This document shows, piece after piece, positions 8,091-24,338 of a stretch of DNA of 49,106 nt. The translations under genes were made by a program, and so were the position numbers. Position 1 is the first letter of the stretch, and each line of letters starts with the position of its first letter. Origin of the DNA: Planctomycetota bacterium (GTDB lineage Bacteria; Planctomycetota; UBA11346). Under the pieces are notes generated by a model. The model was not told the DNA's origin. It did not search any database and worked only from the letters and a program-made list of their open reading frames with translations. The DNA is taken from positions 1-49,106 of the forward strand of contig JBBQSO010000038.1 in assembly GCA_038213805.1 (NCBI GenBank). Direction: 5' to 3'.

Positions 8091-11000
8091 CGCGACCTCG
8101 AATTCGCCAACACGCGAACAGGAGCGAGGCAGCGCAGTCGCGCCGAGGTGATGGCCGGGCAGCGGCCGGTGGCGTCGGCGAGATCATCGAGCTTCGGCGA
8201 GGGGCCGTTCGCGTACTGCCAGGTGATGCGCATCTCGGCGCCATCCACCGGACGCGCGTCGCGCGTCGACGGCTCGGTGAAGCACATCTCGGCATCCACG
8301 ACGGGAAGGAAGATATTTCCGATCGGGAAGCCCAGCGACAGCTCGACCCCGGTCTGTTGCGACCAGTCCATCGCCGGATACCAGGGCGTGGTTGGGGTGG
8401 CGGGCACGCCTGGGCCCGACCAGATATTCTCATAGGCCAGCGCGCGCGCCTGGACGGTGAAGTAGGAATTGCCAGAGCCGTCGAGGAAGCGGTGGTTCGG
8501 ATCCTCGGTCGCTTCGGCCAGGGACATGGTGCTGTACGGCGCCGGCAGCATGGCGATCCGGGTCTGATCGAAATACGCGCCATAGAGGCTGAAGGGGAAG
8601 CCCACCCAGGCGTAGGAGCGGCTGCGGAAGTGCTCCTTGGTGAGCGCGCCGTTCGGCAGCGCACTCGGCAGGCGTGGCCACCAGCCGATCACGATCGGCT
8701 TGGGGTCCGCGGCCCCGCTCCAGCTGCCGGCGACAGGCGTGTTGTACATGCCGCGCAGCCAGGCGGCGGTGGTGTACTTGCCTTCCTGGGCCATTGGCGA
8801 TCCCACCGGATAGTCGCGGTGGAATTTCGGCCCGATCAACTGGATGACCTCGTTCTTGGCCACCACGCCGGTCGGGTCGCAGAACAGCGCCGCGGGAGCG
8901 AAGAGCGTGCGCGGCTGGATGGGCCCGACGGGGATGGCGTCCTGGAGCGCGAACCAGCTGCCTGCCGTCAGCGCCTCGGCCAGCTGCAGCACCGGCCCGA
9001 CAGGCAGGCGCTTCGCGCTCAGCAGTGGGCGGCGGATCTGGTTGTTGGCCACCAGCGGGCCGTCCGGGATGACGTGGGTGTAGACGCCGGTGTCCACCAC
9101 CAGCAGGCCGCGCCCGACCAGCTTGGCGAACAGGCCGCCGTTCTTCACCTGGTTCTGGTCGGTGGGGTTGGTGGCGTTCTCGGGCAGCAGGTTGTACTTG
9201 CCGGCGATCATCAGCGCGTCGGCATCGCTGAGCTGTTGATAGGCGAAGACCTCGCCATCGATGTCGACCAGGCCCATCTTGCCGTGAGCCCAATCGAACA
9301 GCGGGGTGGTCGCCTGGGCGAACATGCCCAGGTCGGCGGGCAGTACGTTGAGCTTCTCGGCGCCGGACGCATCGAAGAAGCGCTTGATGCCGTTGGTGAC
9401 GACATTGGTACGCGCTGGCGAGCCGGTGCTCAGCTCGTGGCCGTCGATGTTCCCCGGAGCGCCTGCGAGCGGTCCAGCGCAGATGTCGTCGATGGTCAGC
9501 GCTGTCGACACGCCAGCGCCGACGCTCGGGCGTTCGCTGTCCTGGCTGCCGAAGAAGATACGCGCCGAGCTGCCGTCGCCGAGCAGGTAGCCGTCCGCCC
9601 ACAGGTCGAGCCGCGGCAGCTGGCCGCGTGGCTCGTCGATGGCGCTGGTGACGCCGACCGGGGTCTCGCGTGGGGTCAGGTCGCCGCCGCTCCAGCAGGT
9701 GCCACAGAGCAGGTCGTACTTCGCGGCCACGATCGGCGCGGTCCAGGCGCCGCCGGTGAGCACGGGATCGAGCGGTGCCGAGAAGGCGAAGTACTCGTTC
9801 TTCGAATCGATCTGCAGCGGGTCGTTCACCGGCAGGGTCGGCTGGGGGTAGGCATCGGTCGCGGCGTAGCGGATGGCCGCCTGGAAGGGTTTCTCGGTGC
9901 CGGGCAAGACCTTCGGCAGCAGCGTGACCAGATCGCCGGTGGCGACCCAGTGGCCGTGGTTACCCAGTTCGGTCTGGACCGGCAGCACCTGGCTGCCGGC
10001 GGCGAAGATCGACAGGGGGCCGACATAGCTGCCGACCTTGGCGCCGAAGTCGGTCCGTCCGATGCCGCGCGACGAGGTGAGGGGATCGGGCTTGTAGGTG
10101 AAGCCATCGAGGTTCAGGAAGAACCCGGTGGTGGGCGCGATCCCCGCGTCGGCGCCAAGGATGAAGTGGTACTTCACCCATTCGATGCGGCCGGTGGTCT
10201 CCTGCACTTGCAGCAGGAAGGCGTTCGAGCCCACGTAGCTCTGGGTGTAGCGGCCGGCCTCGAGCGGATCGGCGCCCGTGACCGGCATGCCGACGAGTTC
10301 GATGGTCGGCTCGCCCGCATCGGTGCTGAGCACGGTGATCGCGTTGGGCGCGGCGGAGGTCGGGCTGCCGGCCGGCATCACCGGCCAGGTCTCGATGGTC
10401 TGCACTCCGGTCAGTGTGGTGCCAGAGGAGGCGGTGTAGTACCGGAACTCGGTTTGACCTTTGAATGTGATCATCACCACTCCGCCGAGTGGCGGGAAGG
10501 GCACGGGGACGTTGTGGATGGGGATGTCGTCGGTGGTATTCAGACGGCGATCGGGTCCGAAAACCGGCATCTGCGACTTGTCGACCTTGCCCCAGATCTC
10601 CCACGGGTGGGCGCTGCCGATGATCGGATCTCCGCTCGCGAAGTCCTGCTGCAGGGCGCAGCCTCCGCGGTAGATGCGCCCGGTGTCCAGGCCCAGGCGG
10701 TAGCCGCCGGGCACCACCAGCGCGCCGACCAGGTGCTGTTGGATGTTGGGATACTGCTTCAGTGGATCGGCGCCGGTGACGAAGGTGTTCTGCCGCTGCC
10801 CGCGCATGCAATCGTGCAGGTTCGAACCGATGATGGAATCGTAGCGGATGTACTCGTCGTCGATGCGTACGAAACCGCGCGCCGGCAGGAGCTGGGTCAA
10901 CGGGATGCCCATGGGGGTGGTGAGCGCGATGTCGGCGACGTAGAGCGTCATGCTCGCGTCGTTCACGGCATACGGCAGGGGAGTCTGGAGGATCGCGCTG

Positions 11001-13705
11001 GGCAGGGTGAAGTGGTCACCGAGCACGGCGGTGGATCCCACCGCGCGGTGCGCCAGCTCTTGGCCGACGACGCCGTCGAGGATGATGTCCGCGCCTTCGG
11101 CGCGGTCGCTCGCGAGCGCCACCTGCAGGTGGTACCACTGGTTCTGGCGGAAGTGCGGCTTGGTGTCTGATTTCGGCGTGCAGTAGCAGTGCAGGACGCG
11201 GTTGGCCTTGCCGAGGGACGAGAAGCCGAGGAGGTTCGGGTCCTTCGGGCACAACGGTTTCGCGTCGGTCGGGATGAAGAAGCTCGACAGCGAGCGTTCG
11301 TCGATGGTCATCGAGGTGATCGAGGTGACGTTGTCTGGCGGGTAGGTGGTGGCGCCGCCGGGGCTGTAATCGACGTCGTGTTCGGCGCTGGGCGGGGCCA
11401 ACGCCAGGATCAGCATCTCCTTGCTGTCGTCGTAATAGAGCCCGAGGTAGTTCTGGCTGTCGTCGGCGCCCGCGGCCGCCGCGACCTGCCCGAGCTGCGG
11501 GATCGCGTTCGCCACCGGTATGCGCGCTTCGCAGATCGGGATGACGCCGCCGCCGGTCCAGTCGTTCTTGGGTTTGAACCACAAGCTGAGGTGCCGAGAG
11601 GTCAGCTCGTGCGAATCGATGGCCGGGTCGACCGGACGGCGCTCGGTGAGGAAGCCGACGTTGTTCGAGGCAGGCGCGACTGGGAGCGTCTGCCCGTGCA
11701 GCCGGTAGGCGAGATCGGCGCTGAGCTGGTGGTCATAGCCGTCGGGCGTGATGTCGACGGCCGCCGCCGCGGGAGCCACCGGCTTGTACGGCGCGTCGGG
11801 CGTGGCGACGGTGGTGGTGGCGCTGAAGATGTCGGCGTCGAGGGCCATCTTCTCGCCGCCGAACGAGACGCGCCAATCGACGGCGACGTGGGTATTGCGC
11901 AGCTCCTCGACGTTGGGGGCGGTGGCGGCGAGCGCCGCGATGTCGGGCAGCACGCGCGGGCGGATGCCGGAGTCAGCGGTGATGGGTGGAGGAGGCGTGA
12001 CGCCGAGGTCGAGGTCGTCGGGAAAGATCGGCGCGCCCGCGGCGCCGAGGCGGCGCTCGTACGCCGTCGGCCAGGCCTGCATCTGGCTGGCGTAGCGCTG
12101 TGCGATCAGGGTGTGCAGATCGCCCTGGGTGATCCAGCGGCGCTCGAGCAGGTATTCCTGCGGCACCGCCTGGATCACGTCGCGGCGCAGCTCCTGCGCG
12201 GTCTGCCGGCCGAGCACGTCGGTGACGGTGGCGGCGGCTTCGATGGTGAAGATGCCCATCGAGCTGATGCCCAGCGGCGGCTGTTCGTTCGCCACGGTGA
12301 ATGCGGGGGAATTCACGGGCAGGTTCAGCGTGTAGCTGAGGCCGAAGAGGTTGCCGTAGGTCGGTGTCGCGCCGGGCACGGTGAGGAAATGTCCGAGGCT
12401 CGACGGCGGGTTGGCGCCGGCCTGCTGGCCGATGGTGCGCACCACCGAATCGTCGACCGGGGTGCCGCCATCGTCGACGGGCTTCTCGGCCGAACCGTTG
12501 TTCAGGGTCTTGCGCACCACCACCGCCAGCTGGTGGATGTTAAGCGGCGCGGGCGCCTCGATGGCGATGGCCGATCCCACCGCGGCGAACGGATTGGCGA
12601 CGCGATCAGGGACGAACAGGGATTTGCCGTGCACCACCTGTTCGGATTCGCCGGTTTCCGCGATGCCATTGACCATGCCGATGATGTGCGCCTGCGGGGG
12701 AGTCGCATATTGGGTCTCGCTCGCCACCACCGAACCTATGCCCAGCAGCGGATGCTTCGGATCCGGGACGCTGTCGAGCCAGAAGGTGTCGTGGATGGTA
12801 TCGCGCGCGACCACGGTGCCGAGATCGATGAAGCCGTCGCGGCCTTGGCGCGGGTTGTGCAGCGTCAGGTACGGGCGCATGCGCTCGAGCTCGGCGCGGG
12901 TAAGGCGGTGGCGGAACAGCGGGTGCTGCGATTGGGGATTGGCGCGCAGCAGCTGCTCGAGATCGGTGATGCGGCGGTCGGGCAGATTGAAGCGCACGCT
13001 GGCGAGATGCTGGGCGAGCTGGCCGACGGTGTCGGAGTCGTACGGGTATGGCGCTGGCACCACCTCGTTGTCATCCCAGTCGGTGATCCCGAGGGCCGCG
13101 AGGAATTTCTGCCACACCACCGGCCCCATGTCGTTGGGGTCGAGCTTGCCCGCCTCGTCGGTGACGATCGCGCCCAGGTAGGTGCGCTGCTTGGTCTCCG
13201 AAGGCAGGGGAACCGCGTTGTACGCCGTCGGCGTGAGCGGGAAGCCCTCGGGCAATAGTCCGATCGAGCCGTCTCCGTTCGGACCGGCGTCGAGCGGCAC
13301 CACCGCTGCCTTGTAGCCGGCGGGGGTATCGGGATTGATGGGCGCGGCGAATCCTGCCACCGGAGCCCACGGTGCATAAGTCTCGGCGAGGCTGGTCCAC
13401 GCCGCGGTCGGGCTTCCCGGCAGGGCCGCGCGCAGCGACGGGGTCTCGGCATAGGCGGCGATCGCGGTGGCCATGTTGGCCGCGCTGTCGCGCCCGATCT
13501 GCGCGACCTTGCTGTCGGCGAACGAGCGCGTGCCTGCGAGGCTGGAGGACTGCGTGTACAGGAAGGGCAGGCCGAGCAGCAGCAGGGCCGCGAGCAGCAC
13601 CAGGGCGAGGATCAGGGCGGCACCGGAACGTGGCATGTCTGTCCGTGGTATCCGAGGAGAGTCTGGCCGTCGAGGGGCTGGCGGATGAACGTCTGTCCGT
13701 GGCAT
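8087..13705 (-). CDS. Giant (about 1870 aa) GspK/PilX-like pseudopilin with a LamG-like domain and repeated beta modules
   Basis: RSG|AALILALVLL signal lacking E5, as in GspK/PilX; DEAGKLDPN and ITDLEQLL...ERMRPYLT GspK-like motifs; LSLWFKP...WYHLQV...ILDG LamG-like motifs. Start 13714, 13705 or 13636. Confidence 0.75.
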   Translation of the reverse strand: MPRTDVHPPAPRRPDSPRIPRTDMPRSGAALILALVLLAALLLLGLPFLYTQSSSLAGTRSFADSKVAQIGRDSAANMATAIAAYAETPSLRAALPGSPTAAWTSLAETYAPWAPVAGFAAPINPDTPAGYKAAVVPLDAGPNGDGSIGLLPEGFPLTPTAYNAVPLPSETKQRTYLGAIVTDEAGKLDPNDMGPVVWQKFLAALGITDWDDNEVVPAPYPYDSDTVGQLAQHLASVRFNLPDRRITDLEQLLRANPQSQHPLFRHRLTRAELERMRPYLTLHNPRQGRDGFIDLGTVVARDTIHDTFWLDSVPDPKHPLLGIGSVVASETQYATPPQAHIIGMVNGIAETGESEQVVHGKSLFVPDRVANPFAAVGSAIAIEAPAPLNIHQLAVVVRKTLNNGSAEKPVDDGGTPVDDSVVRTIGQQAGANPPSSLGHFLTVPGATPTYGNLFGLSYTLNLPVNSPAFTVANEQPPLGISSMGIFTIEAAATVTDVLGRQTAQELRRDVIQAVPQEYLLERRWITQGDLHTLIAQRYASQMQAWPTAYERRLGAAGAPIFPDDLDLGVTPPPPITADSGIRPRVLPDIAALAATAPNVEELRNTHVAVDWRVSFGGEKMALDADIFSATTTVATPDAPYKPVAPAAAAVDITPDGYDHQLSADLAYRLHGQTLPVAPASNNVGFLTERRPVDPAIDSHELTSRHLSLWFKPKNDWTGGGVIPICEARIPVANAIPQLGQVAAAAGADDSQNYLGLYYDDSKEMLILALAPPSAEHDVDYSPGGATTYPPDNVTSITSMTIDERSLSSFFIPTDAKPLCPKDPNLLGFSSLGKANRVLHCYCTPKSDTKPHFRQNQWYHLQVALASDRAEGADIILDGVVGQELAHRAVGSTAVLGDHFTLPSAILQTPLPYAVNDASMTLYVADIALTTPMGIPLTQLLPARGFVRIDDEYIRYDSIIGSNLHDCMRGQRQNTFVTGADPLKQYPNIQQHLVGALVVPGGYRLGLDTGRIYRGGCALQQDFASGDPIIGSAHPWEIWGKVDKSQMPVFGPDRRLNTTDDIPIHNVPVPFPPLGGVVMITFKGQTEFRYYTASSGTTLTGVQTIETWPVMPAGSPTSAAPNAITVLSTDAGEPTIELVGMPVTGADPLEAGRYTQSYVGSNAFLLQVQETTGRIEWVKYHFILGADAGIAPTTGFFLNLDGFTYKPDPLTSSRGIGRTDFGAKVGSYVGPLSIFAAGSQVLPVQTELGNHGHWVATGDLVTLLPKVLPGTEKPFQAAIRYAATDAYPQPTLPVNDPLQIDSKNEYFAFSAPLDPVLTGGAWTAPIVAAKYDLLCGTCWSGGDLTPRETPVGVTSAIDEPRGQLPRLDLWADGYLLGDGSSARIFFGSQDSERPSVGAGVSTALTIDDICAGPLAGAPGNIDGHELSTGSPARTNVVTNGIKRFFDASGAEKLNVLPADLGMFAQATTPLFDWAHGKMGLVDIDGEVFAYQQLSDADALMIAGKYNLLPENATNPTDQNQVKNGGLFAKLVGRGLLVVDTGVYTHVIPDGPLVANNQIRRPLLSAKRLPVGPVLQLAEALTAGSWFALQDAIPVGPIQPRTLFAPAALFCDPTGVVAKNEVIQLIGPKFHRDYPVGSPMAQEGKYTTAAWLRGMYNTPVAGSWSGAADPKPIVIGWWPRLPSALPNGALTKEHFRSRSYAWVGFPFSLYGAYFDQTRIAMLPAPYSTMSLAEATEDPNHRFLDGSGNSYFTVQARALAYENIWSGPGVPATPTTPWYPAMDWSQQTGVELSLGFPIGNIFLPVVDAEMCFTEPSTRDARPVDGAEMRITWQYANGPSPKLDDLADATGRCPAITSARLRCLAPVRVLANSRSR

Positions 13706-13717
13706 GGAGATCACGGA

Positions 13718-15043
13718 TCAGGGAACCGTGGTGGTCGCGCTGGTGACGACCCCATCGACGCTGAGGTTGACGGTGACCAGCTGGTCTCCGCGCGTGGCGA
13801 CGCCGCCGGACATGGCGAACTTCAGGTCGCTGGTGGCGACGGGAATGGTCGCGGGACTCTCGCCGTAGCTGCTGGCCTGCACATGGCCGTCGGGATGCAC
13901 GGTGATGCGGTAGCTCGCTTGCGGCGTCACGCCAGCCGGGAGGGTGCCGGCGCGGTCGATGGCGAGCCGGTAGAGGCGCGCGTCGTCGATGATGCCGCCC
14001 AGCTCCACTTCCTGATCGGCGACCGGCAGGAGGCTCAGGCTGGTGGGGAACTTGCCGTGGCCGAGGTGGACACTGTCGTCGGTGGCCACGGTCGCGCCCC
14101 TGAGGTAGCCGCCTTCGAAAGGCTTGGCGCCGACCAGCACGCCGTTGCGGTAGAGCTCGAGGCGCTCGCCGTCGTAGAGCATGCCGACCTCGTCCCAGCT
14201 GTCGCCATTCATGGGCGCGGCGATATCGGGACCATCGAACAGCGCGGGCGTGTCGCGGACCGTGCCGGACAGCGTCTCGACCTCGCCGCCAGCGGCCACG
14301 TCGTTGATCGAGCTCACCCACTTCTTGCCGGAGCTCTCGGAGTTCACCCAGCCGAGGATCTCCCAGCAGTCGAAGGTCGGCTCGTATGGCGCCGGCGTGG
14401 TGGGCAGCACCGGCACATGGTCGACGTGCTGGATCTTCCGGCGCAAGCCCTGCAGCACCAAGCCGCAGGTGCACTGGTCCTCGTCGTCGCTGCCGACCAG
14501 GATCAGCGGCACGATCGCCTTGTCGCTCGCCGGACCGGGTTTCACGCTGCACGAGATGTAGAAACCCTCGGTGCGGCCGCGCGCGGTGCGGCGGGCCAGG
14601 CGCTTGGAGCGGTCGAGCGGGATCGGCGCGAGCGAGGTCTTCGGCGGGCCGGTCAGACTGGTGAGGCCCTTGCCGGAACGACCGATCAGCACCGAGAACT
14701 GTGGCGGGATCGCGGTCTCCTCGAAGGTCTCGTTCCACAGCATCAGCTGGCTGACGCCGAGCACCGAGCGATCGGTCTGGCTGATCTCGATGGTCACCGG
14801 AGTGCCCGAGCTGCGTGCGGCGTGGCGGGCTTGCCGCACCACGTCGGCGACCATGTGCTCGGTGCCCACCAGGGCGTTGACACGCGGGGTGTGCAGGATC
14901 GCGCCGATCGAGATGCCCATGAAGATCATGATGATGCCGATCACCACCAGCAGCTCGATCAGCGTGAAGCCCCCGCCCAGCCGCGTGGCTGTGGATGGCG
15001 CCCTTCGCAGAGTGACCGGTCCGCTGCGCATGGGCCGGATCAC
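13718..15043 (-). CDS. Prepilin-type GspH/FimT-like protein with LamG/ConA-like domain
   Basis: GG|FTLIELLVVIGII; VRQARHAA; WDEVGMLYDGERLELYRNG and GIIDDARLY LamG motifs. GTG at 15043 overlaps the upstream stop (ATG alternative at 15031). Confidence 0.82.
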   Translation of the reverse strand: MIRPMRSGPVTLRRAPSTATRLGGGFTLIELLVVIGIIMIFMGISIGAILHTPRVNALVGTEHMVADVVRQARHAARSSGTPVTIEISQTDRSVLGVSQLMLWNETFEETAIPPQFSVLIGRSGKGLTSLTGPPKTSLAPIPLDRSKRLARRTARGRTEGFYISCSVKPGPASDKAIVPLILVGSDDEDQCTCGLVLQGLRRKIQHVDHVPVLPTTPAPYEPTFDCWEILGWVNSESSGKKWVSSINDVAAGGEVETLSGTVRDTPALFDGPDIAAPMNGDSWDEVGMLYDGERLELYRNGVLVGAKPFEGGYLRGATVATDDSVHLGHGKFPTSLSLLPVADQEVELGGIIDDARLYRLAIDRAGTLPAGVTPQASYRITVHPDGHVQASSYGESPATIPVATSDLKFAMSGGVATRGDQLVTVNLSVDGVVTSATTTVP

Positions 15044-15579
15044 TGCTTCCAATTGGTGATGTCGTCGGTGTCTTTGTCGCCGTGCTGGTCGATCTCGTCG
15101 GCGCTGGCCGACCAGATCTGGAACGAATCCGGATGTGGCGGCGCGTCGGTGTCGATGGCGATCGGCGCTCCGGCGAGGTACGGATAATACTTCACCGGCC
15201 GGTAGCGCAGGACCTTGACCTTCCACGGGTCCAGCAGCGAATAGCCGGTCACGCCGAACGGATCGCGATCGGACTTGGCGAGCAGCGGGAGAAGTTCACC
15301 GGCGACGGCCACCCAATCGCTCTCGCTGATGGTGTCGGCGGTCTTCGGGGTGGCGGCTGGCATCAGCGTGGACTTGATCAGGAGGCTGTCGGGGTAGTCG
15401 CCATTGAGCAGGCGGTAGTGCTCGCAGGCGACGGTCACCTGCGCGATCTGGCTCCGGCACCTGGTCTTCATCGCCTGTTTCTTCACCATGTTCATGGCGG
15501 GAAACAGCATGCCGAGCAGGATCATGATGATCCCGATCACCACCAGCAACTCCATCAACGTGAAACCCTTGCGCGTCAT
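15040..15579 (-). CDS. GspG-like (type II secretion) pseudopilin
   Basis: KG|FTLMELLVVIGII; YRLLNGDYP, LDPW and FQIWSASAD...DDITNW GspG C-terminal pattern; GGAG RBS. Confidence 0.85.
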   Translation of the reverse strand: MTRKGFTLMELLVVIGIIMILLGMLFPAMNMVKKQAMKTRCRSQIAQVTVACEHYRLLNGDYPDSLLIKSTLMPAATPKTADTISESDWVAVAGELLPLLAKSDRDPFGVTGYSLLDPWKVKVLRYRPVKYYPYLAGAPIAIDTDAPPHPDSFQIWSASADEIDQHGDKDTDDITNWKQ

Positions 15580-15789
15580 GCCGGCTCCAGGGGATGTTCT
15601 ACCGCATCTCAGCCGTGGCGTTGCCCACCAGCACCCTGGCATGACACCACCGAAGGCATTTGGGCGCAAGTACTTCGGGATGAGACGCACGGGTCTTGTA
15701 ACGTCCGGACAGGATTATTGGCGTGGTCAACCGAGTCGATGGTTGCGAGGGGAGGCCTTGCCGGCGATCGGGCGCGATGGCCTCGATGG

Positions 15790-18700
15790 CTATTCGTCGC
15801 CTTCCTCGAAGCAGACCAGCTGCCCAGCCTTGGTGGGCACGAACACTCGGCCGTCGTACGCCAACACGCCGCCCACCGCGGCGCCGCCGACATCGGCCTT
15901 CCAACGCTCGCTGCCGGTCAGCGGATCCAGGCAGTGCAGCAGACCCTTGCCATCGGCGATATAGACGCCGTGCGCGCCGATGGCGGGGGACCCGGGCAGG
16001 GTGCCCAAGCTGCCCTGGGCGGGGAAGCGCCAGAGCAGCTGGCCCGGGTGCGCGAGATCGATCGCCACGATGCGCCCCTCGGCGACCGAGACGAATGCGA
16101 CCGGCTGGCCGGGGAGCAGCACGGGTGTCGATGGCGAGGTGCCGTCGATCGGCCAGGCCGCGACGACGCGCTTGCTGTCCGGCACGTTGCGGTCGCAGTC
16201 GAACGCCATGACCACGCCGGACATGTCGCTGACCATCAGCGAGTCGCGGTCTGCGACCTTGGCCTTGACCAGCTTGCCGATGAGATCGCCGCGGGATTGC
16301 AGGGTGTAGAGCTTGCGCGGCGGGCTGAGCTCGGTGATCTCGGAGATGTCGTAGGCGATCAGGCTGGTGCCGGCGGGCACGTACAGGATCGACATCCCGG
16401 CGGGATGGTCGACGAATGGAGCGCCGGTGATGTCGGCGTCGGACGCCAGCTTGGGATAGGCGCGCGTCGCGCCGGTGGGGTCGACCTCGATGATCTGCAG
16501 GCCAGCTTTGATGGTCGCCGCGAACACCAGCAGCTGGCCGGGCTTGATCTCGTGCTCCTGGACCCACAGGTGGCCGTTGAGGCGGTCCTGGGCGTTCAAG
16601 GACTGCGGCCACTGCCACAGCCGCACGCGGCTGTTGAGATCCACCGCGAAGACGTGGTCGTCGAGCACCGCGTAGGCGCGATCCTGGTAGACGAACGGCG
16701 CGACGGTGAATTCGGCGATGTTGTTCGGGAACTTCACCTCGCGGTTCGCACCCAGCACCGGGTCGATCATCTCGAGGGTGCCCTTGTCGGTGCCGAGCAG
16801 CACCAGCTTCTGGGCGACGATGGGGCGGGTGGCTGAGGCTCCCGACAGGTCGGTGCGCCAGCGCCAACCGCGTGAAAGCGAGACCACGGCCTGGGTCTTG
16901 CGTCCCTTCACGTCGATTGAGAACTTCTGCGGCGAGAATCCCGGACGCGAGGCCTCGACCGTGACCGATTCGTTGACCCGGTAGGTGATCCGCTCCGACC
17001 AGCTGCCGCGCTTGCCAGCGGGCGCCGAAACACGGCTCTCCTCGGCTCCTGGCCGCTTGATCGAGAGCTGCACGCGGTTGCTGTCCATCTGCAGGGTGAA
17101 GGGCAGCTCGAGCGTCGCGTAGTAGTCGCCGACGGTGCGGCCTGAGGCCTCCTTGGCCAGCGTCGCAAGCTCGTCCACCTGGGTGAAGGTCGCCTGGTCG
17201 TCGCCACGGTTGGCGGCGTCGGCGGCGAGCTTCCCGAGGTCGTGGGCCATCTCGAGCTCGATAGAGAGCACGCGGGCGCGGGCCTTGTCGGCCCACTGCT
17301 CGCCCTGGCCGGTGGCGGCGCGCCGGAAGGCGGTGAGCACCTCGTGCTTCGATCCGTTCTGTTCATAGCGCTGGGCGCGCTCGTAGAGCTTCTGCGCGCT
17401 CTTGGATGCGTCGGACCATTCGGCCATCGAGCGCGTGTAGTCCTCGCGCAGCGAGGCGGGCAGATCCTTACGGTCGAGGATGGTCTGGAGGATGGCGATG
17501 GCGCCGTCCCAATTGAGGTTGTTCCAGAGGCTCTCGGCCTCTTTCATCTTCGTCGATACCTGCGATTTGATGCGCTCGAAGTGGATGGCCTCGAGGATGG
17601 TGTCGGCGTTCGAGGCCGACTGGGTGTTCTGGTACTTCACCTTCATCTCGCCGATGATGGCCTCGGCCTCTTCGTACTTGCCGGCTTCGCGCGCGGCGTC
17701 GGCGCGTTGGAACTCGAGGCCGGCGCGCGCTTCGAAGTCCTTCTCGATCTGCGTGCGGCGCTCCTCGAGGCGGCGGCTGACCTCGGAGTTGGTCCCGTAC
17801 TTGGTCTTGAGATCGTCGAGCTCCTCGAGCAGTTGGAGATGGCGGCCGGACTGCATGCCACTGGTGAGAGTGGCCTCGAAGTCGTTGACCTTGCTCTCGC
17901 CGTACTGCTTGATGACGTGCCCGTGGTAATATTCCCAGCCGAAGACCATGGCGGTGGCCGCGAGCGCGACGATCGCGACGTAGACCAGGATGCGCGCCGC
18001 CTTGCTGGTCTTGATTGCCTCTGAATTCTGCGCATGGCCGAGGACCTGGTCCTTGACGTTGTTGTACTTGCAGTCGGCATCGAGGATCGCGCGCAGCGTA
18101 TCCAGCGCCTTCTTCGGCCGCTCGCCGGTGAGCAGGGCATGCCACAGCGATTTGTATTCCACCACCGCGTTCTCGGTCTGGCCCTCGAGCAGGTACGCAC
18201 GCGCCAGGTAGCGGTGCGGTTCTGGGGAACGCGGCAGGAGATTCTTGGCGCGATGGCAGGCGTCGATGGCGCGCGGCAGATCCTTGCGCGCGAGGTAGGT
18301 CTGCGCGGCGGTAGCGTACGAGGCGGCGGCGGGTTCGACTTGGCCGAGCTCGGCCTGGATCTGGCCGCGCTCGAAATGCAGATCCGGATCGTCGGGCGAC
18401 AGGTTGATGACGGTGTCGAGATCGGCGAGCGCGTTGGGCAGATCGCCCTGGTCCTGCGCCATCTGGATGAGTTCGAGGTACAGCTCGACCGCGCGCGGGG
18501 CCTGGTTGAGCTTCACGCAGCACTCGGCGAGAGGGCGCATCACCTCGGGGATCGGGGCTTGGCGGATGGCGTTGTCGAGCAGCTCCTTGGCCTGCTGCAT
18601 GTCGCCCTGCTGCATCAGCGAGACGGCGTCGTCCACCACCTCCTGGGCGGTCTTCGGCCGCGCAACGCCAGCGAGGACGAGCTGGGCGACGATCGCGAAG

Positions 18701-19380
18701 GTGTCGAAGCGGGTGACGCCGACGGACATGGCGATGGCATTCAGCGAGTGGCGCCCGTCGAGGTAGCGCAGCACCTTGAGCATCTCGGGGTCGGTCTGCA
18801 CGTTCTTGAGATTGGCGCGGCCATCGTTGTCGACGATGTACAGGGCATCGGGGTCGGTGATGACCTCGCGGATGCGTTTCCACTCGTCCATGCGGCGCGT
18901 GGCTTCCATCACCAGCTGCGTGGTCTGCACCATCGCGTTGCCCATCGCCACCACGTCGAGTGAGGTCAACTCCTGGACTGGCGCGCCGTCGATGAAGGTG
19001 AAGTCGCCTTCTTGCCATTCGAACACCGGGCACACCAGCTCCTCGATGCACCACGCGCTCATCTCGTCGAGTTCGTAGTCCGCCACCGCTCCGGACGACA
19101 GCACCAGATCCCTCAGCGGTTGGTTCGAGGCGCGCAGCTGCTGGCTGAGTTCGTCGGCCTTCTCGGCAGCGAGCTGGCCCTTGTGCACCATGGCATCGAG
19201 CAGGTACGGACGGTTGTTCACCACGGGCGCCGAGCACATGGCGATCTGGCCCTGGTCGAAATAGATGTGCACGCTCGTCACCGGCCCGGACACCGCGAGC
19301 GTCCCGGTCTGCCGATTCATGTTCAGCGTCTGGAAGATGTCAGTCAGGTTGACAGAGCTGAGCTGGCCTTGGAAGCCCAT
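15790..19380 (-). CDS. DUF4388 (PATAN-like) + TPR + TM + PQQ/BamB-like beta-propeller protein
   Basis: GQLSSVNLTDIFQTL...TGTL...IYFDQG...FEWQEGDFTF...MEATRRMDEW; TPR helices; TM ILVYVAIVALAATAMVFGW; C-terminal WRF/LHCLDPLTGSERW propeller repeats. Confidence 0.85.
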   Translation of the reverse strand: MGFQGQLSSVNLTDIFQTLNMNRQTGTLAVSGPVTSVHIYFDQGQIAMCSAPVVNNRPYLLDAMVHKGQLAAEKADELSQQLRASNQPLRDLVLSSGAVADYELDEMSAWCIEELVCPVFEWQEGDFTFIDGAPVQELTSLDVVAMGNAMVQTTQLVMEATRRMDEWKRIREVITDPDALYIVDNDGRANLKNVQTDPEMLKVLRYLDGRHSLNAIAMSVGVTRFDTFAIVAQLVLAGVARPKTAQEVVDDAVSLMQQGDMQQAKELLDNAIRQAPIPEVMRPLAECCVKLNQAPRAVELYLELIQMAQDQGDLPNALADLDTVINLSPDDPDLHFERGQIQAELGQVEPAAASYATAAQTYLARKDLPRAIDACHRAKNLLPRSPEPHRYLARAYLLEGQTENAVVEYKSLWHALLTGERPKKALDTLRAILDADCKYNNVKDQVLGHAQNSEAIKTSKAARILVYVAIVALAATAMVFGWEYYHGHVIKQYGESKVNDFEATLTSGMQSGRHLQLLEELDDLKTKYGTNSEVSRRLEERRTQIEKDFEARAGLEFQRADAAREAGKYEEAEAIIGEMKVKYQNTQSASNADTILEAIHFERIKSQVSTKMKEAESLWNNLNWDGAIAILQTILDRKDLPASLREDYTRSMAEWSDASKSAQKLYERAQRYEQNGSKHEVLTAFRRAATGQGEQWADKARARVLSIELEMAHDLGKLAADAANRGDDQATFTQVDELATLAKEASGRTVGDYYATLELPFTLQMDSNRVQLSIKRPGAEESRVSAPAGKRGSWSERITYRVNESVTVEASRPGFSPQKFSIDVKGRKTQAVVSLSRGWRWRTDLSGASATRPIVAQKLVLLGTDKGTLEMIDPVLGANREVKFPNNIAEFTVAPFVYQDRAYAVLDDHVFAVDLNSRVRLWQWPQSLNAQDRLNGHLWVQEHEIKPGQLLVFAATIKAGLQIIEVDPTGATRAYPKLASDADITGAPFVDHPAGMSILYVPAGTSLIAYDISEITELSPPRKLYTLQSRGDLIGKLVKAKVADRDSLMVSDMSGVVMAFDCDRNVPDSKRVVAAWPIDGTSPSTPVLLPGQPVAFVSVAEGRIVAIDLAHPGQLLWRFPAQGSLGTLPGSPAIGAHGVYIADGKGLLHCLDPLTGSERWKADVGGAAVGGVLAYDGRVFVPTKAGQLVCFEEGDE

Positions 19381-19688
19381 CGGTGTATCCGAGTGTCGGT
19401 GTGAGCGGGAAAAGCGCGAGCGGCGTGCTTGGAAGGATACACCAGACTAGGCGGGAAACCCAGTAGGGTAAGCGCTTTCCAACCCCGCGAGGGCCATCGG
19501 GCGGGTGATCCACCGCGGTCGTTTCGCACGTCGGTCGCGAGCGCGGCCGTTCCGCTCATTCCAGATGTGGACGGGCGCGTTCACGCCGAGTGGCGGACCC
19601 TGGCACCGCGATGAGAAAACGTCCGGAATCGATCCTCGCTCACGTTCCCTCCGCCTCCGGCTGACGACGACGGATGACGGACGCTGAT

Positions 19689-20204
19689 TTAGAGATTGCC
19701 GAACAGCGAGTCGAGCTGGTCCTTCATCGCTTCCGAGAATCCGGCGCCCAGGGTCTGCTGCTGATCGCTCGGGGCGCGCTTCGACGCTTCGACGAGGACT
19801 CCTTCGAGCTGGGTCGAGAGCTCCTTGCACAGCACTTGGATCATTCCCGGCTTCACCTGGCTCGAGAACACGCAGACCTGGAGAGTGCGCTCGCCGAGCA
19901 GGGTGATGTGGATGCTCTGGCCCGTGCCTTGATGGAACAGGACGCGGAACTCCTTCTCTCCGAGCAGCCTGGCGACCTCGCGCGTCGAGGCGAAACTACC
20001 CGCGACGAGCGCGGCGAGAGCGCTGGAATCGTGGCTCTGGTGGAATCCCTGACGGGCCACCATGTGGCCTTCCTGGTCGATGAGCAGGGCGGATTGCGCG
20101 TTGGCCTTCTTCACGAAAGCGAGCAGGACGCCATTGATCTTGTCGATGTCGGCGGCGTAAAAGACCAGTCGCCGCAACTTCAGGGCCTCGTTTTCGCTGA
20201 CCAT
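19689..20204 (-). CDS. mglB: MglB-type roadblock/LC7 GTPase-activating protein
   Basis: LVFY..DIDKIN...ANAQSALLIDQEG...SSALAALVAGSFASTREVARLLGEKEFRVLFHQG...LDSLF closely follows Myxococcus MglB; TAATG overlap with mglA. Confidence 0.9.
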   Translation of the reverse strand: MVSENEALKLRRLVFYAADIDKINGVLLAFVKKANAQSALLIDQEGHMVARQGFHQSHDSSALAALVAGSFASTREVARLLGEKEFRVLFHQGTGQSIHITLLGERTLQVCVFSSQVKPGMIQVLCKELSTQLEGVLVEASKRAPSDQQQTLGAGFSEAMKDQLDSLFGNL

Positions 20205-21787
20205 TACGGGCTCCCCGCCGGGGTCGTGGCTGGAGGAGCCGCTGGAGGCTCGGCGACCGGCGTGTTCACGGGTGCCGGAGTCGGTGCTGGTGCTTCCTGA
20301 GCCGGGGTGGCGGCGGGGGCGGCAGCGACCGGGGGAGCAGGTGACGGCGTAGGCGCGGCGGCGGGAGCCGGAGTCGGCGGGGTGGCGGCTACCGGAGCTG
20401 CCGCGGTCGGAGCCGCGGCGATGGGAGCGGTGGCGGCCGGAGCCGCCACCGCCGGCGCGTCGGGGAGGACGGGCGCAGGGGTATGCGCCACCGGCGCTGC
20501 TGGGGTCGTTGGCGCGCTGGCCACCGGCTCGGCCGAGCTCGCCATGGGCAGGGCAGCGGAATGGGCCTGCGATTCGCCCATGAACATGCGCTGCATGTTC
20601 GGCGGCAGCTGGGCGCGTACCGCCGGGACGAACATGCACAGGATGAAGAGGATGATGATGGCGATGACCAGGAAGATCAGGACCAGCAACATGGCGCGGA
20701 CGGCTCCGCCGCCCGACTTGTTCTCTTGGTAACGGCGCAGATTGGGATCGGTCGAACCGAGATCCGGATTGGCACCGGCGGCACGCTTGTCGATAGCCGG
20801 CGGCTTGGCCTTGGCGAGATGCTTGTCCTTGGGGCTGAGGTCCTCGGGTGGGGGCACCACCGCGTTGCCTCCCGCCGGAGTCGGCGTGTAGTTCGGGCGT
20901 GGCGGCACGCCTTGCGAGCGCGGAGGCACCACGGGAACGCCGCGTTCAGAACCAGGGCGCCCTTGGATCTGCGTGGCTGGGGCGGCCGGGCGTTGGGGAA
21001 GGCGCTGCTGACCGAGCGGAGTGGTCGAGGTGCCTTGCGGGAGTTGCTGGGGTACCTGCGGGCGCTGCGCGACGCCGGTGGGCACGCCCGCCTGCATCGG
21101 CGGCAGCTTGTTGGCGCCGCTCGGGCTCTGTACCGGCACGCCCTGCGAGGGACTCTTGCCTTCGAGATTGGTGGCTGTGCGCCGGCGGGTGGACGCCGGC
21201 GCATGCTCCTTGTTGAGCTTCTCGATCACCAGGCGGCTGATCTCCTTGAGGGTGGCGAACACGCCCTTGCCCTCGCGCGCGACGCCCTCGAACACCGGAG
21301 CGTTCATCGGGTTCATCTGCGCGTTCATGTCGGGGATCGACATCGCCGTCGGCAGATCGCGCTTGTTGTATTGGAGGACCACCGGCACGTCGTCGAGGGT
21401 GAGACCCATCTCGGCGAGATTGTCGCGCAGATTCTGCAGCGATTCGAGGTTCTCCGGCATCTTCTCGGGAGACGAGTCGGCGACGAAGATCACTCCGTCC
21501 ACACCTTGGAGCACCAGTTTGCGGGTGGCGTTGTAATAGATCTGCCCAGGCACGGTGTAGAGCTGGAACTTGGTGCGCATGCCGGCGACCTGCCCGAGAT
21601 CGAGCGGAAGGAAGTCGAAGTACAGCGTGCGGTCGGTCTCGGTGGCGATCGACACCATTTCGCCGACGGCGTCTTTCGGCGCCTTCTTATGGATGATCTC
21701 GAGATTGGTCGTCTTCCCGGACATGCCTGGTCCGTAGAAGACGACTTTGCAACTCACTTCGCGTTGGCCGAAATTGATCTGAACCAT
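20204..21787 (-). CDS. mglA: MglA-family small GTPase fused to a Pro/Gln linker, TM helix and Pro/Ala-rich tail
   Basis: CKVVFYGPGMSGKTTN, TETDRTLYFDFLP, YTVPGQ, QYNKRDL in the first ~195 aa; TM AMLLVLIFLVIAIIILFILCMFV. Confidence 0.93.
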   Translation of the reverse strand: MVQINFGQREVSCKVVFYGPGMSGKTTNLEIIHKKAPKDAVGEMVSIATETDRTLYFDFLPLDLGQVAGMRTKFQLYTVPGQIYYNATRKLVLQGVDGVIFVADSSPEKMPENLESLQNLRDNLAEMGLTLDDVPVVLQYNKRDLPTAMSIPDMNAQMNPMNAPVFEGVAREGKGVFATLKEISRLVIEKLNKEHAPASTRRRTATNLEGKSPSQGVPVQSPSGANKLPPMQAGVPTGVAQRPQVPQQLPQGTSTTPLGQQRLPQRPAAPATQIQGRPGSERGVPVVPPRSQGVPPRPNYTPTPAGGNAVVPPPEDLSPKDKHLAKAKPPAIDKRAAGANPDLGSTDPNLRRYQENKSGGGAVRAMLLVLIFLVIAIIILFILCMFVPAVRAQLPPNMQRMFMGESQAHSAALPMASSAEPVASAPTTPAAPVAHTPAPVLPDAPAVAAPAATAPIAAAPTAAAPVAATPPTPAPAAAPTPSPAPPVAAAPAATPAQEAPAPTPAPVNTPVAEPPAAPPATTPAGSP

Positions 21788-21827
21788 GGGTTGTCCGATG
21801 CGTGGGGGGTCGGCGGTCCGGCGTGCG

Positions 21828-22181
21828 TCAGGTCGCCAACGTCAGGCGCTGAGTGATGCGTTCGACGAAAGGCTTGGTCTCCAGCTGGAGCAGGGCGAGA
21901 TTCGCCGACGGATCGATGACGATCGCGAGGAACGCCGGGCCGGTGGAGAGCACGACGATGCCGCCCAGCTCCGAGGCGGCGTTGAACGCGGCGAGCTTGC
22001 CGAGCTGGTAGTTGGAGCAGATCTTGTTGGTGCCCTCGAGCAGGTTGCCGATCGAGGCCGCGAGCTGGTTCTCGTCGGTGCCCTGGCGCAGGGCGGATGC
22101 CATGACCAGGCCCTCTCCGGAGACCAGCATGGTGCCGCCCACGCCGCGCACGCGATTGAGCTGTTGCAGGAGGTCGTTCAT
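21828..22181 (-). CDS. Roadblock/LC7 domain protein
   Basis: LNRVRGVGGTMLVSGEGLVMAS...LAA...ANLALLQLE; 117 aa; TGATG overlap. Confidence 0.85.
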   Translation of the reverse strand: MNDLLQQLNRVRGVGGTMLVSGEGLVMASALRQGTDENQLAASIGNLLEGTNKICSNYQLGKLAAFNAASELGGIVVLSTGPAFLAIVIDPSANLALLQLETKPFVERITQRLTLAT

Positions 22182-23041
22182 CAGGCGGCCCCGAGGTCGA
22201 TGAGGGTCTGGCGGGCGCGCAGCTCGAGCATGGCCGGACGGACCGTGACATCGGCGAGCACCACCACGCTGAATGCGCGATCGCGCTGGAAGGTGAGCAC
22301 CTGTCCGGCTCCGCCGGTCAGCGCCCAGGTCGAGAGCTTCTCGATGCCGACCACGGTCAGCGCCGCTTGGGCCGATCGGGCGACGTCCGCCGACAGCGCG
22401 GCGAGCAGCTCGTCCTGGCCGGCGGCGAGATTCTTGGTCACGACCACGCGGCCGTGCATGTCCACCACCAGGGCCCCGCGCACTCCGGGCTCTGCGCACA
22501 GCGCATCGAGTGTCGCGGTGCGCGAGCCCGTGGAGGCCTTGATCGCGGTGGTCATGGGACCCTGGAACGGCATCAGGGGTTCATTCCCGAGCGAGCTCTT
22601 GCCAGCGGCGCCAGCGGCCGCGGCTGGCGAGGGGGCGATGCCGTGGGCCTTCTCGAGTTCGGCGATCTTGGCGGTGGCGGCGGCATCGTTCGGCTTGATC
22701 GCGAGCACCTGCCTCAGGTTCGCGATCGCCTTCGGCACGTCCTTGTCGAAGACCATCATGTCCGCGAGCAGCATGTAGCCGTTGACGCTGCGCGGGTCGC
22801 GCTCGATGCCGGTCTGCAGCAGCTTCAGGGCGTCGTCGCGCTTGCCGCGAGACGACTCGATCTCGGCCAGGATGACGTAGGCCTGGCCGTTGCGAGGGAA
22901 CTCCTTCATGCAGCGGCGGCACACCTGCTCGGCCTCGTCGTTGCCACCCGCATTGCGGGCAAGCTCGGCAAGCCGGTTGTAGAGGGAGGCGGAGGGGAAA
23001 TTCTCCACCTTCTTGCGCAGGCGTTCGAGTTCTGATTCCAC
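22181..23041 (-). CDS. TPR + roadblock/LC7 fusion protein
   Basis: N-terminal TPRs (P.ASLYNRLAE...P.N..AYVILA...P.D); C-terminal PGVRGALVVDMHGRVV...LAAL roadblock domain. Confidence 0.82.
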   Translation of the reverse strand: MESELERLRKKVENFPSASLYNRLAELARNAGGNDEAEQVCRRCMKEFPRNGQAYVILAEIESSRGKRDDALKLLQTGIERDPRSVNGYMLLADMMVFDKDVPKAIANLRQVLAIKPNDAAATAKIAELEKAHGIAPSPAAAAGAAGKSSLGNEPLMPFQGPMTTAIKASTGSRTATLDALCAEPGVRGALVVDMHGRVVVTKNLAAGQDELLAALSADVARSAQAALTVVGIEKLSTWALTGGAGQVLTFQRDRAFSVVVLADVTVRPAMLELRARQTLIDLGAA

Positions 23042-23441
23042 CCGCGTGGTCTCCTGGTGGCGATGCGCACCGATCCGGCACGCCGGCCATGGTCGGCCGA
23101 TGCCGAGCTTTCCATAGCGCTCCCAGGCAGGAGGTGCCCGAGCAAATAGCGCCTAGGATTCGGCTTACACCTGCTCTCTACATAGTGACGGGATGGCGAG
23201 CAGTCAAGGCGACTTGTCAGTTCGGGCTCGGATGCGGAGCGCATGCGTGCCTATTTCCGACCGTCTCGTCCAAGTGAATGCAACCGATGAATCAAAGCGA
23301 TGGCGCCGGCGCCGACTCGTCGGACTCGTCGGATCTGTCAGTGAGGTGTCCCGCTGTCCCGCTGGTCGACCGCCGAACCGCGCGCGTGCCAGCCGGTGCA
23401 ACACATCTTCCCATTGCCATCTCCGGAGCATCCTCCGTCGC

Positions 23442-24338
23442 GTGCGCGAACTGATCTTCATCGTCAACGCCGAGAGCGGCGGCAGGCGCGGCAGGTGGTT
23501 GATGAAGCATTTGCGCACGCTGTTTCCAGAGGATCGGGTGCTGCCCCTGGCGGGGGTCGACATCGATCGGGCGATCCGACGCAGCCGGGACGAGGACGGG
23601 GCAGTGGTCGCCTGTGGCGGCGATGGCACGGCTGCCTGCGTGCTCGAGGCCTCGTGGCGCGCTGGTGGATCGGTGCCCATCGGCATCGTTCCTCTGGGCA
23701 CCGGCAACGATCTCGCACGCAGCATGGGCTGCCGATCCAGTGGCGGCTTGGTGTTCTCGGCATTGCGCGCGGGAGTCCCGCGCCGCATCGACCGGTGGGT
23801 ACTGCGCGCTCCCGAGGGGGCTCGGCATCCCGAACGCGCCTGGTTCAACTACCTCAGCGTCGGCTACGATGCACGCGTAGCGCACCGTTTCCACGCGCTG
23901 CGGCGGCATCATCCCGCCATGTTCCGCTCGCCGACGGTGAACAAGGTGCTCTACGGGATGGTCTCGCTAGGTGAGCGGGGCGGCCCAGTCGCGGGCGCGG
24001 TGCGACTGCATGCCGCCGGCCCGATCGCGGTGCCGGCCTGGTCGGGGGCGGTGGTGCTGGCGAACATCGCCAGCTACGCAGGCGGGACCCGGCTCGGGTC
24101 GGGCATCCTACCCGACGACGGATCGCTCGACGCCTTCGCGCTGCCTGCCGGCCTGGCGATGGGCCTGGCGATGGGCGGGATCCGCCGTGCCCACCGGCTC
24201 GGCGCGCATCGCCGCGTCGACATGCACATCCTCCACGCGGTGGCGATGCAGATCGATGGCGAGCCGCTCATCGCTGGGCCAGGCCACTACCGAGTGATCC
24301 ATGGCGGGACCGTCCAGGTGCTGGTCCCGCCAAGCTGA
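23442..24338 (+). CDS. Diacylglycerol/lipid kinase family protein (eukaryotic DGK-like)
   Basis: IVNAESGG, ACGGDGT, PLGTGNDLAR, NYLSVGYDA, NIASYAGG, QIDGEP; GTG start inferred. Confidence 0.88.
   Translation: MRELIFIVNAESGGRRGRWLMKHLRTLFPEDRVLPLAGVDIDRAIRRSRDEDGAVVACGGDGTAACVLEASWRAGGSVPIGIVPLGTGNDLARSMGCRSSGGLVFSALRAGVPRRIDRWVLRAPEGARHPERAWFNYLSVGYDARVAHRFHALRRHHPAMFRSPTVNKVLYGMVSLGERGGPVAGAVRLHAAGPIAVPAWSGAVVLANIASYAGGTRLGSGILPDDGSLDAFALPAGLAMGLAMGGIRRAHRLGAHRRVDMHILHAVAMQIDGEPLIAGPGHYRVIHGGTVQVLVPPS

Follow-up and report, generated by a model that had tools for sequence, protein, structure and literature searches.

The window analysed here is a 49,106-nucleotide contig of a Planctomycetota bacterium (GenBank assembly GCA_038213805.1, contig JBBQSO010000038.1, positions 1 to 49,106 of the forward strand). 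Our subject is one of its genes, mglA-TM, which encodes a small GTPase of the MglA type whose G domain continues in frame through a disordered linker into a predicted transmembrane helix and a low-complexity tail. The open reading frame (ORF) begins with ATG and runs on the minus strand over 527 amino acids (aa) without an internal stop, 331 of them lying beyond the G domain, and its TAA stop has one base in common with the ATG of the following mglB gene (ccgTAATGgtc). The gene is composed as follows.

20204..21787, minus strand: mglA-TM gene, whole ORF with stop codon, 527 aa
21200..21787, minus strand: group-1 MglA G domain, residues 1-196, from the match to solved MglA structures
20708..21199, minus strand: disordered basic Pro/Ala/Gly/Gln linker, residues 197-360 (164 aa), from composition and AlphaFold2 (AF2)
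20708..20842, minus strand: conserved pre-helix block inside the linker, residues about 316-360, KDKHLAKAKPP...LGxTDPNLRRYQ...GGG, from alignment A1 (33 homologues)
20627..20707, minus strand: single predicted transmembrane helix, residues 361-387, from Kyte-Doolittle hydropathy and AF2
20579..20626, minus strand: conserved post-helix motif, residues 388-403, PAVRAQLPPNMQRMFM, from A1 and AF2
20207..20578, minus strand: low-complexity Ala/Pro/Thr tail, predicted periplasmic, residues 404-527, from composition

This layout closely follows the original prediction, which had been made from the letters of the window alone. It had described an intact MglA domain with the Arg of DRT and the Gln of PGQ retained (R53 of DRT and Q82 of TVPGQ are present), an in-frame linker of ~165 aa (164 aa measured), a hydrophobic transmembrane segment at about 20625-20700 (found at 20627-20707) and a Pro/Ala/Thr tail of ~130 aa (140 aa follow the helix), the end of which overlaps the mglB start as TAATG, as can be read directly in the sequence.

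Residues 2-193 align end to end with MglA of Thermus thermophilus (3t12_A, E=1.6e-76, 261 bits), and the Myxococcus xanthus MglA structures 6h17, 5ymx and 6hjh match the G domain at E about 1e-71. Its motifs are readable as the P-loop GPGMSGKTT, DRT (R53-T54), T78-V-P-G-Q82 and NKRD, and GPGMSGKTT, R53-T54, T78-VPGQ82 and NKRD are invariant in A1. The G domain is 78-96% identical among orthologues, and codon comparison with five of them gives a ratio of nonsynonymous to synonymous substitution rates (dN/dS) of 0.03-0.08; it is under very strong purifying selection. According to the accessible text of a survey classifying the Ras-like GTPases of prokaryotes, an Arg finger next to the G2 threonine together with TVPGQ (not DxxGQ) defines group 1, which includes the studied proteins of Myxococcus, Bdellovibrio and Thermus (PMC4316618). 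MglA-TM shows the G1-G5 Ras-like motifs, the intrinsic Arg finger, TVPGQ and the coupling to mglB that go with group 1, but with 527 aa it exceeds the size limits applied in the survey, about 150-240 aa for a single-domain protein. In the same text, 39 of 488 MglA-clade sequences exceeded the limit of 240 aa (PMC4316618), and by this criterion a long MglA such as MglA-TM would have been set aside. The extension beyond the G domain leads us to treat it as a variant of group 1 and not as an ordinary member.

Pfam gives a weak Arf/Ras signal for the G domain, with an Arf score of 29 bits, and many homologues carry the JGI label 'signal recognition particle receptor subunit beta' (SR-beta), both of which follow from the lack of a dedicated MglA model. 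SR-beta is a eukaryotic protein with an N-terminal anchor and an Arf-like G domain that has neither the MglA Arg finger nor TVPGQ. It resembles MglA-TM in being a membrane-anchored small Arf-like GTPase and differs in the end that carries the anchor. We rejected an SR-beta identity on account of the C-terminal position of the anchor, the MglA-specific motifs and the 261 bits against a solved MglA versus 29 bits for Arf; the name is an annotation carry-over.

Beyond the G domain, the linker opens with a short basic patch, EHAPAxxRRRT, of which R202 is invariant in A1, and residues 197-345 hold P 20%, A 11%, G 10% and Q 9% at a net charge of +11. AF2 predicts no secondary structure for residues 205-345, where the predicted local distance difference test score (pLDDT) is mostly <50, and a short helix at 348-354 in the pre-helix block. 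Two motifs of this block, KHLxKxKP-like and TDPxLKRY-like, recur in 103/114 and 96/114 helix-bearing homologues, respectively. The following segment, 361-387, reaches 3.68 in its best 19-aa Kyte-Doolittle window and is the one hydrophobic window >=2.0 in the protein; AF2 predicts a helix at 361-386 with a pLDDT of 86-92, and the GC content of its codons is 0.19 at second (GC2) and 1.0 at third positions (GC3). V387 and P395 are nearly invariant in A1, and AF2 places a further helix at 396-403 within the post-helix motif (PAVRAQLPP...). The last 117 aa consist of A 38%, P 30% and T 11%, with no structure predicted by AF2, and Pfam and NCBIfam returned no domain in either linker or tail. Among close homologues the tail measures 5-160 aa (median 81 aa; >=25 aa in 107/114). 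Against the same five orthologues, dN/dS amounts to 0.12-0.28 for the pre-helix block, 0.26-0.77 for the linker and 0.15-0.60 for the tail, with dS near saturation and an unreliable low-complexity alignment, so that of all these values only those of the G domain and the pre-helix block carry weight.

With a G domain of the cytoplasmic kind and no signal peptide ahead of it, MglA-TM would be a bitopic protein with its N terminus inside. The 15 aa before the helix contain 3 K/R and 2 D/E (net +1) and the 15 aa after it 2 R (net +2), which leaves no local charge bias across the helix; a fourth basic residue, R364, sits at the start of the helix segment. Tail-anchored proteins carry a single C-terminal transmembrane helix with about 30 aa or fewer beyond it, and MglA-TM with its 140 aa after the helix is not one of them; its C-terminus (...PPATTPAGSP) shows no MinD-type basic plus amphipathic Phe/Leu motif. 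Many orthologues end in ...EGANGQ/K or ...HGQ, with their stop 11 bases inside mglB (window 20204-20260 and A1). These conserved C-termini are probably explained by the start region of mglB, which they overlap, and not by any role of the tail.

The long reading frame recurs throughout the relatives. We fetched 55 related loci, several of them retrieved twice, of which 54 begin with the G domain (L001-L054); 44 of these contain complete ORFs (34 distinct sequences) and 10 run off their contig. Orthologous ORFs in related loci are 388-527 aa long, and 42 of the 44 complete ones reach the C-terminal hydrophobic helix in the same frame despite very variable linker lengths. Of 8000 database proteins scored, 6113 match at E<=0.001, with lengths of 289-923 aa, and exactly one strong hydrophobic window lies near the C-terminus in 114 of the 120 best homologues. 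Contigs from four public runs of one study, one run being possibly the source sample, were furthermore compared over 19600-22200. One contig of this possible source run, X1, spans 19600-21268 with 0 differences, contigs of run X2 cover 20235-21230 with 0 differences, and no insertion or deletion is listed in the contigs of the four runs over the compared region, their cover of the G domain being fragmented.

Matches are present in all 24 genomes examined from the same family. A phylum sample of 201 genomes, each at least 85% complete, yielded the G domain at E<=1e-30 in 118, mostly in open frames of 300-530 aa. Twenty genomes were then hand-picked from the phylum list to cover diverse family codes, nearly closed genomes included, giving 18 complete ORFs and two that run off the contig. 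All 18 combine the G domain with a disordered linker, at a net charge of +3 to +21, and a C-terminal hydrophobic helix, and an MglB-like gene lies directly downstream in 18 of the 20 loci. In 16 of the 18 complete ORFs only 2-10 aa follow the helix, which corresponds to a classical tail anchor, and the KHLxKxKP-like, TDPxLKRY-like and P.VR[AGS] motifs common to close relatives are missing in distant ones. On this comparison of sequences, the membrane anchor is the conserved core of the design and the long tail a family-specific addition, a lineage-specific elaboration given how soon after the helix most orthologues from other families end. Two checks suggested by the original prediction, for a stop lost near 21200 and for C-terminal transmembrane segments in homologues, turned out in its favour: the region around 21200 lies within the stretch 20235-21230 that is free of differences in the assembled contigs of run X2, and the helix is found in most of the best database homologues as well as in every complete ORF of the phylum-wide set.

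An exhaustive G-domain search of 1.84 billion cluster representatives returned 2288 proteins at E<=1e-30, and the 150 nearest of them all contain the RT (Arg-finger) and TVPGQ motifs. Of the 150, 57 carry one C-terminal helix, followed by a median of 5 aa, and 44 (P0138-P0263) have no helix and a basic plus Phe/Leu amphipathic end such as KKKGFFKRLFG or KKKGFFxRLFxK; the remainder are 46 proteins with other ends and 3 below 260 aa in length. Because linkers diverge fast, clustering at 50% identity inflates the share of long forms, and these counts are not natural frequencies. Amphipathic ends were called by regular expression; P0245 looks false, and at least six members of the 'other' class look amphipathic by eye. 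The general statement of the original prediction that MglA proteins are soluble and ~195 aa long describes the studied proteins only, given how few of the nearest representatives are below 260 aa.

One amphipathic-type cluster bears the NCBI name Zixibacteria, and we take the KKKGFF-type end to resemble the MinD membrane-targeting sequence. These proteins share with MglA-TM a group-1 G domain (57-68% identical), a long disordered linker and a C-terminal membrane-binding element, whereas their anchor is peripheral and basic/aromatic instead of a transmembrane helix, and the two types form almost separate clades. A FastTree phylogeny of 140 G domains, from which 11 rows were left out (P-loop pattern unmatched or too short), needs 2 changes between helix and amphipathic type, whereas the first 5 of 200 shuffles of the labels need 30-34; as related proteins share labels, this shows only that the anchor type is clade-specific. 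The amphipathic end appears to be an independent, convergent anchor of a sister clade. We also observed that the amphipathic motif is often preceded by a conserved (M/L)(Y/F)FTSV(D/N)TDR...P(V/I)NPK block. Other C-terminal ends occur in P0228, P0248, P0254, P0261, P0262, P0202, P0161, P0244, P0257-P0259, P0264 and P0265. These long relatives finish in one of two ways, with acidic stretches that repeat a hydrophobic-(D/E)-x-P-(F/Y) motif (DFNPF, DFDPY, IELRPY) or with a segment resembling a beta-strand (VPVxLxxxQLxxGxxLxLxI), and both ends may represent additional C-terminal modules not recognised so far.

The genes surrounding mglA-TM are listed below.

22181..23041, minus strand: TPR + Roadblock protein, 286 aa, first gene of the cluster (Pfam TPR; Robl_LC7 at residues 178-236)
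21828..22154, minus strand: small Roadblock/LC7 protein, 108 aa, directly upstream of mglA-TM (Pfam Robl_LC7, 6.6e-07)
19689..20204, minus strand: mglB, 171 aa (Pfam Robl_LC7; M. xanthus MglB match)
15790..19380, minus strand: PATAN (DUF4388)-TPR-helix (464-482)-PQQ/BamB-like beta-propeller protein, bitopic, 1196 aa (Pfam and hydrophobic window)
13718-15226, minus strand: 502-aa gene product with prepilin-type N-terminal methylation motif, weakly GspH/GspJ-like
8087-13714, minus strand: 1875-aa gene product with one N-terminal hydrophobic helix and no family match
6969-8090, minus strand: 373-aa gene product with prepilin-type N-terminal methylation motif, weakly GspH/GspJ-like (Pfam N_methyl above cut-off)
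5074-5694: response regulator after the prepilin-like (pilus- or pseudopilus-like) cassette
23193-24338, plus strand: diacylglycerol-kinase-like lipid kinase (DAGK_cat + DAGK_acc), divergent from the operon

mglA-TM is the third gene of a tight same-strand set. Its companions are widely kept, with the TPR + Roadblock gene present in 51/55 loci, the small Roadblock gene upstream in 50/55 and mglB downstream in 43/55. The mglB product matches M. xanthus MglB (6h5b_B) over its full length, C-terminal helix included, at E=6e-24, and the 108-aa Roadblock protein matches only generic Roadblock structures. A gap of 308 bases separates mglB from the PATAN gene, which is adjacent in 24/55 loci and absent downstream in at least 10 with enough room; proximity to PATAN genes is also noted in the accessible survey text for some mglA genes of groups 1 and 5 (PMC4316618). 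For the three genes after the PATAN gene, Pfam N_methyl scores above its cut-off only at 6969-8090, and GspH-, GspJ- and 'Verru_Chthon cassette D'-like matches fall far below theirs; the genes at 13718-15226 and 8087-13714 recur downstream in 9 and 4 other loci, respectively. The diacylglycerol-kinase-like gene keeps its divergent position in >30 related loci. A scan of 15000-23600 for promoters and terminators found no promoter-like site; its 4 terminator-like sites all lie on the plus strand and are no more numerous than in shuffled sequences. Elsewhere in the window, a 789-aa ORF at 31140-33509 (minus strand) joins dephospho-CoA kinase (CoaE) with Rho RNA-binding and ATPase domains, and may be a fusion of CoaE with Rho or the result of a start codon called too far upstream.

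The genome of the window is 90% complete and holds three MglA-type G domains; the G-domain query found no short soluble MglA among its contigs. One further domain belongs to a second complete five-gene set (G000 contig C55, L059:5480-12200, plus strand) with an MglA-TM of 455 aa, whose G domain is 95% identical to that of the window and whose partners are 43-73% identical. In other genomes of the genus the operon is seen once, and the second set may be a true paralogous operon or the contig of a co-binned relative. The third domain opens a 1477-aa protein (contig C9, L060:2623-7056, minus strand), in which an N-terminal MglA-like G domain, 46% identical, is followed by a Ser/Thr kinase and about 900 aa without Pfam matches. 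Counterparts of this kinase fusion occur in the other genomes of the family, within open frames of 1113-1561 aa, and the arrangement of G domain and kinase recalls Roco/LRRK proteins.

Taken together, MglA-TM is probably the form that the MglA/MglB Ras-like switch takes in Planctomycetota, a group-1 protein that is catalytically intact and would reside permanently at the cytoplasmic membrane. The G domain would lie in the cytoplasm, the helix would cross the inner membrane and the tail would face the periplasm, with the linker allowing the G domain to range through a layer of roughly 10 nm beneath the membrane. Confined in this manner, the G domain would cycle between GDP and GTP with MglB as its GTPase-activating protein, through the intrinsic Arg53/Gln82 mechanism of the kind that the accessible survey text describes for Thermus MglA (PMC4316618), and the GTP form would recruit membrane-proximal effectors. 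The tether would restrict the switch to a thin layer and thereby raise the rate at which it meets regulators and effectors bound to the membrane. Co-regulation or the provision of a docking platform is the likely role of the two extra Roadblock proteins. Gene position suggests, as a guess, the PATAN-TPR-TM-beta-propeller protein as a candidate input receptor in this lineage and the adjacent prepilin-like cassette as a candidate output, the latter guess drawing also on the link between Myxococcus MglA and type IV pili as far as the accessible sources describe it. The long Ala/Pro/Thr tail and the conserved motifs flanking the helix would be additions of the window's family. A single-pass anchor excludes a release-and-rebind cycle through the cytoplasm as known from Myxococcus. 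It does not imply the fixed-site signalling that had originally been proposed, as a protein held in this way can still relocate by lateral diffusion.

Several points weigh against this reading. The helix itself shows a dN/dS of about 0.5-1.3 on 26 codons, and with such low constraint on its sequence any constraint there falls on composition. It was called by an in-house Kyte-Doolittle script. The AF2 model has a mean pLDDT of 60 and falls to <50 at residues 23-61, the P-loop/switch I region; a shallow, nearly identical alignment is the probable reason for this low confidence. The helix is missing in 6 of the 120 best homologues, which are 308-374 aa long, and in 2 of the 44 complete locus ORFs, L035 (220 aa) and L045 (328 aa); the latter two lie on short contigs, continue into unrelated sequence after an early stop and look truncated or rearranged. 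With adjacency in fewer than half of the loci, the PATAN protein cannot be an obligatory partner. Support comes from sequence and conservation, and no RNA run is listed as containing the region.

By analogy, a bolder extension of the membrane-held switch can be put forward, which we regard as speculative and rather unlikely. The five-gene set might form a self-contained receptor/G-protein cascade on the inner membrane, in which a periplasmic beta-propeller sensor would switch the leashed GTPase via the Roadblock platform, the GTPase would position a pilus-like machine or the budding pole, and the post-helix motif and tail could sense or be held by periplasmic partners. Ragulator and the Rag GTPases of eukaryotes serve as the model for a Roadblock platform controlling MglA-TM. 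If this were true, a variable linker with a C-terminal anchor would be an old, repeatedly invented bacterial solution.

Among the alternatives proper, the one that survives best comes from the original prediction, in which an extended and possibly glycosylated periplasmic Pro/Ala/Thr stalk implies fixed-site signalling. As weighed here, such a stalk might extend as far as the wall or outer membrane and would keep the switch at one place instead of letting it relocate. The tail is indeed long in the window's family (median 81 aa), it keeps its A/P/T composition and a conserved motif follows the helix, which upholds a long tail as a feature of this family. As the core of the design it does not stand, for with the 2-10-aa tails in 16/18 orthologues of other families the ancestral arrangement works without a stalk; the sequence and length of the tail are moreover poorly conserved and Pfam detects no wall-binding or other domain, and we consider a pinning stalk improbable. 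The same conserved motif allows for a further and still less probable explanation, according to which the hydrophobic segment is an internal signal-anchor and signal peptidase I cuts after V-R-[A/G/S], freeing the tail and leaving a tail-anchored MglA. P.VR[AGS] directly follows the helix in 63/114 homologues and places a small residue at -1, V at -3 and Pro a few residues upstream, in line with the -3/-1 rule of signal peptidase I, but an AVRP variant takes its place in 24/114, neither occurs in 26/114, and a hydrophobic stretch of about 26 residues is long for a cleaved signal.

The C-terminal position of the segment and the short tails of many relatives superficially resemble C-terminal sorting signals, and the segment could accordingly serve in sorting or processing (as a PEP-CTERM/exosortase-like signal) or as a helix for protein-protein contact, in a protein that is otherwise soluble or exported. 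We give this little credence, as the protein starts directly with the MglA fold without an N-terminal signal peptide, A1 shows neither a PEP nor an LPXTG-type motif ahead of the helix, and the pre-helix flank is basic, as expected on the cytoplasmic side; a PEP-CTERM-like signal was rejected for want of both signal peptide and motif. That the metagenome assembly lost a stop or introduced a frameshift and so joined mglA to a membrane-protein gene downstream of it, conceivable for a metagenome bin of 180 contigs with two truncated versions (L035, L045) among the related loci, can be rejected as far as sequence allows and is the least credible account, since the fused frame recurs in the complete orthologous ORFs, the database homologues and other families, including genomes of 1-8 contigs, independent contigs contain no indel, and purifying selection extends beyond the G domain.

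Compared with the MglA/MglB system of M. xanthus and T. thermophilus, MglA-TM has in common the whole-length G domain, the Arg finger, TVPGQ and even the residue numbering (R53, T78, Q82), and the module shares a full-length MglB match, with mglB lying directly downstream here and PATAN genes as occasional neighbours. The Myxococcus and Thermus proteins are soluble and 195-197 aa long, in contrast to the 527 aa of MglA-TM with its linker, helix and tail, and the locus described here has two further Roadblock genes upstream. To our knowledge, all mechanistic MglA work treats a small soluble protein, the polar release and rebinding of which drives polarity switching. A full-text literature search found no paper on membrane-anchored or planctomycetal MglA in the text accessible to it, and Table S2 of the group 1 survey may list long planctomycetal sequences among its 39 MglA-clade proteins above 240 aa (PMC4316618). 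MglA-TM is a real variant of a known switch, undescribed in the texts so searched. The actinobacterial conservon CvnA-D likewise encodes an MglA-family GTPase and a Roadblock protein together with a membrane sensor, and the accessible texts report a proposal that its GTPase serves as the output of membrane signalling (PMC4316618, PMC13343842). The conservon differs from MglA-TM in having a group 2 MglA (no Arg finger, GTPGQ), a histidine kinase as sensor and a soluble GTPase.

Eukaryotic Ras/Rab/Rho proteins show the same order of G domain, flexible variable linker and C-terminal membrane anchor. Their anchor is a prenyl or palmitoyl group, whereas that of MglA-TM is a protein helix, for which reason no extraction cycle of the type carried out by guanine nucleotide dissociation inhibitors (GDI) is possible, and their linker is about ten times shorter. 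The tether of MglA-TM would do the job of the hypervariable region and lipid anchor of these proteins, namely confinement to two dimensions. The likeness of the extension is one of analogy and not of shown homology, and in the accessible part of one study the C-terminal extension of Ras/Rab/Rho is argued to have arisen during eukaryogenesis (PMC10933270).

The contribution of the window itself is modest and consists of the lineage-specific long tail and the helix-flanking motifs that it adds to the family picture. As genetic tools exist for some planctomycetes, according to the accessible parts of two reports (PMC4910669, PMC5394234), the design is directly testable. A whole phylum with unusual cell biology, which includes FtsZ-independent budding in the accessible accounts (PMC4990742, PMC4910669), would appear to encode a form of MglA that cannot leave the membrane, while other phyla attain membrane attachment of MglA by a different anchor. 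The anchored form changes the assumptions about the MglA module outside Myxococcus and offers a prokaryotic parallel to the lipid-anchored Ras and Rab proteins.

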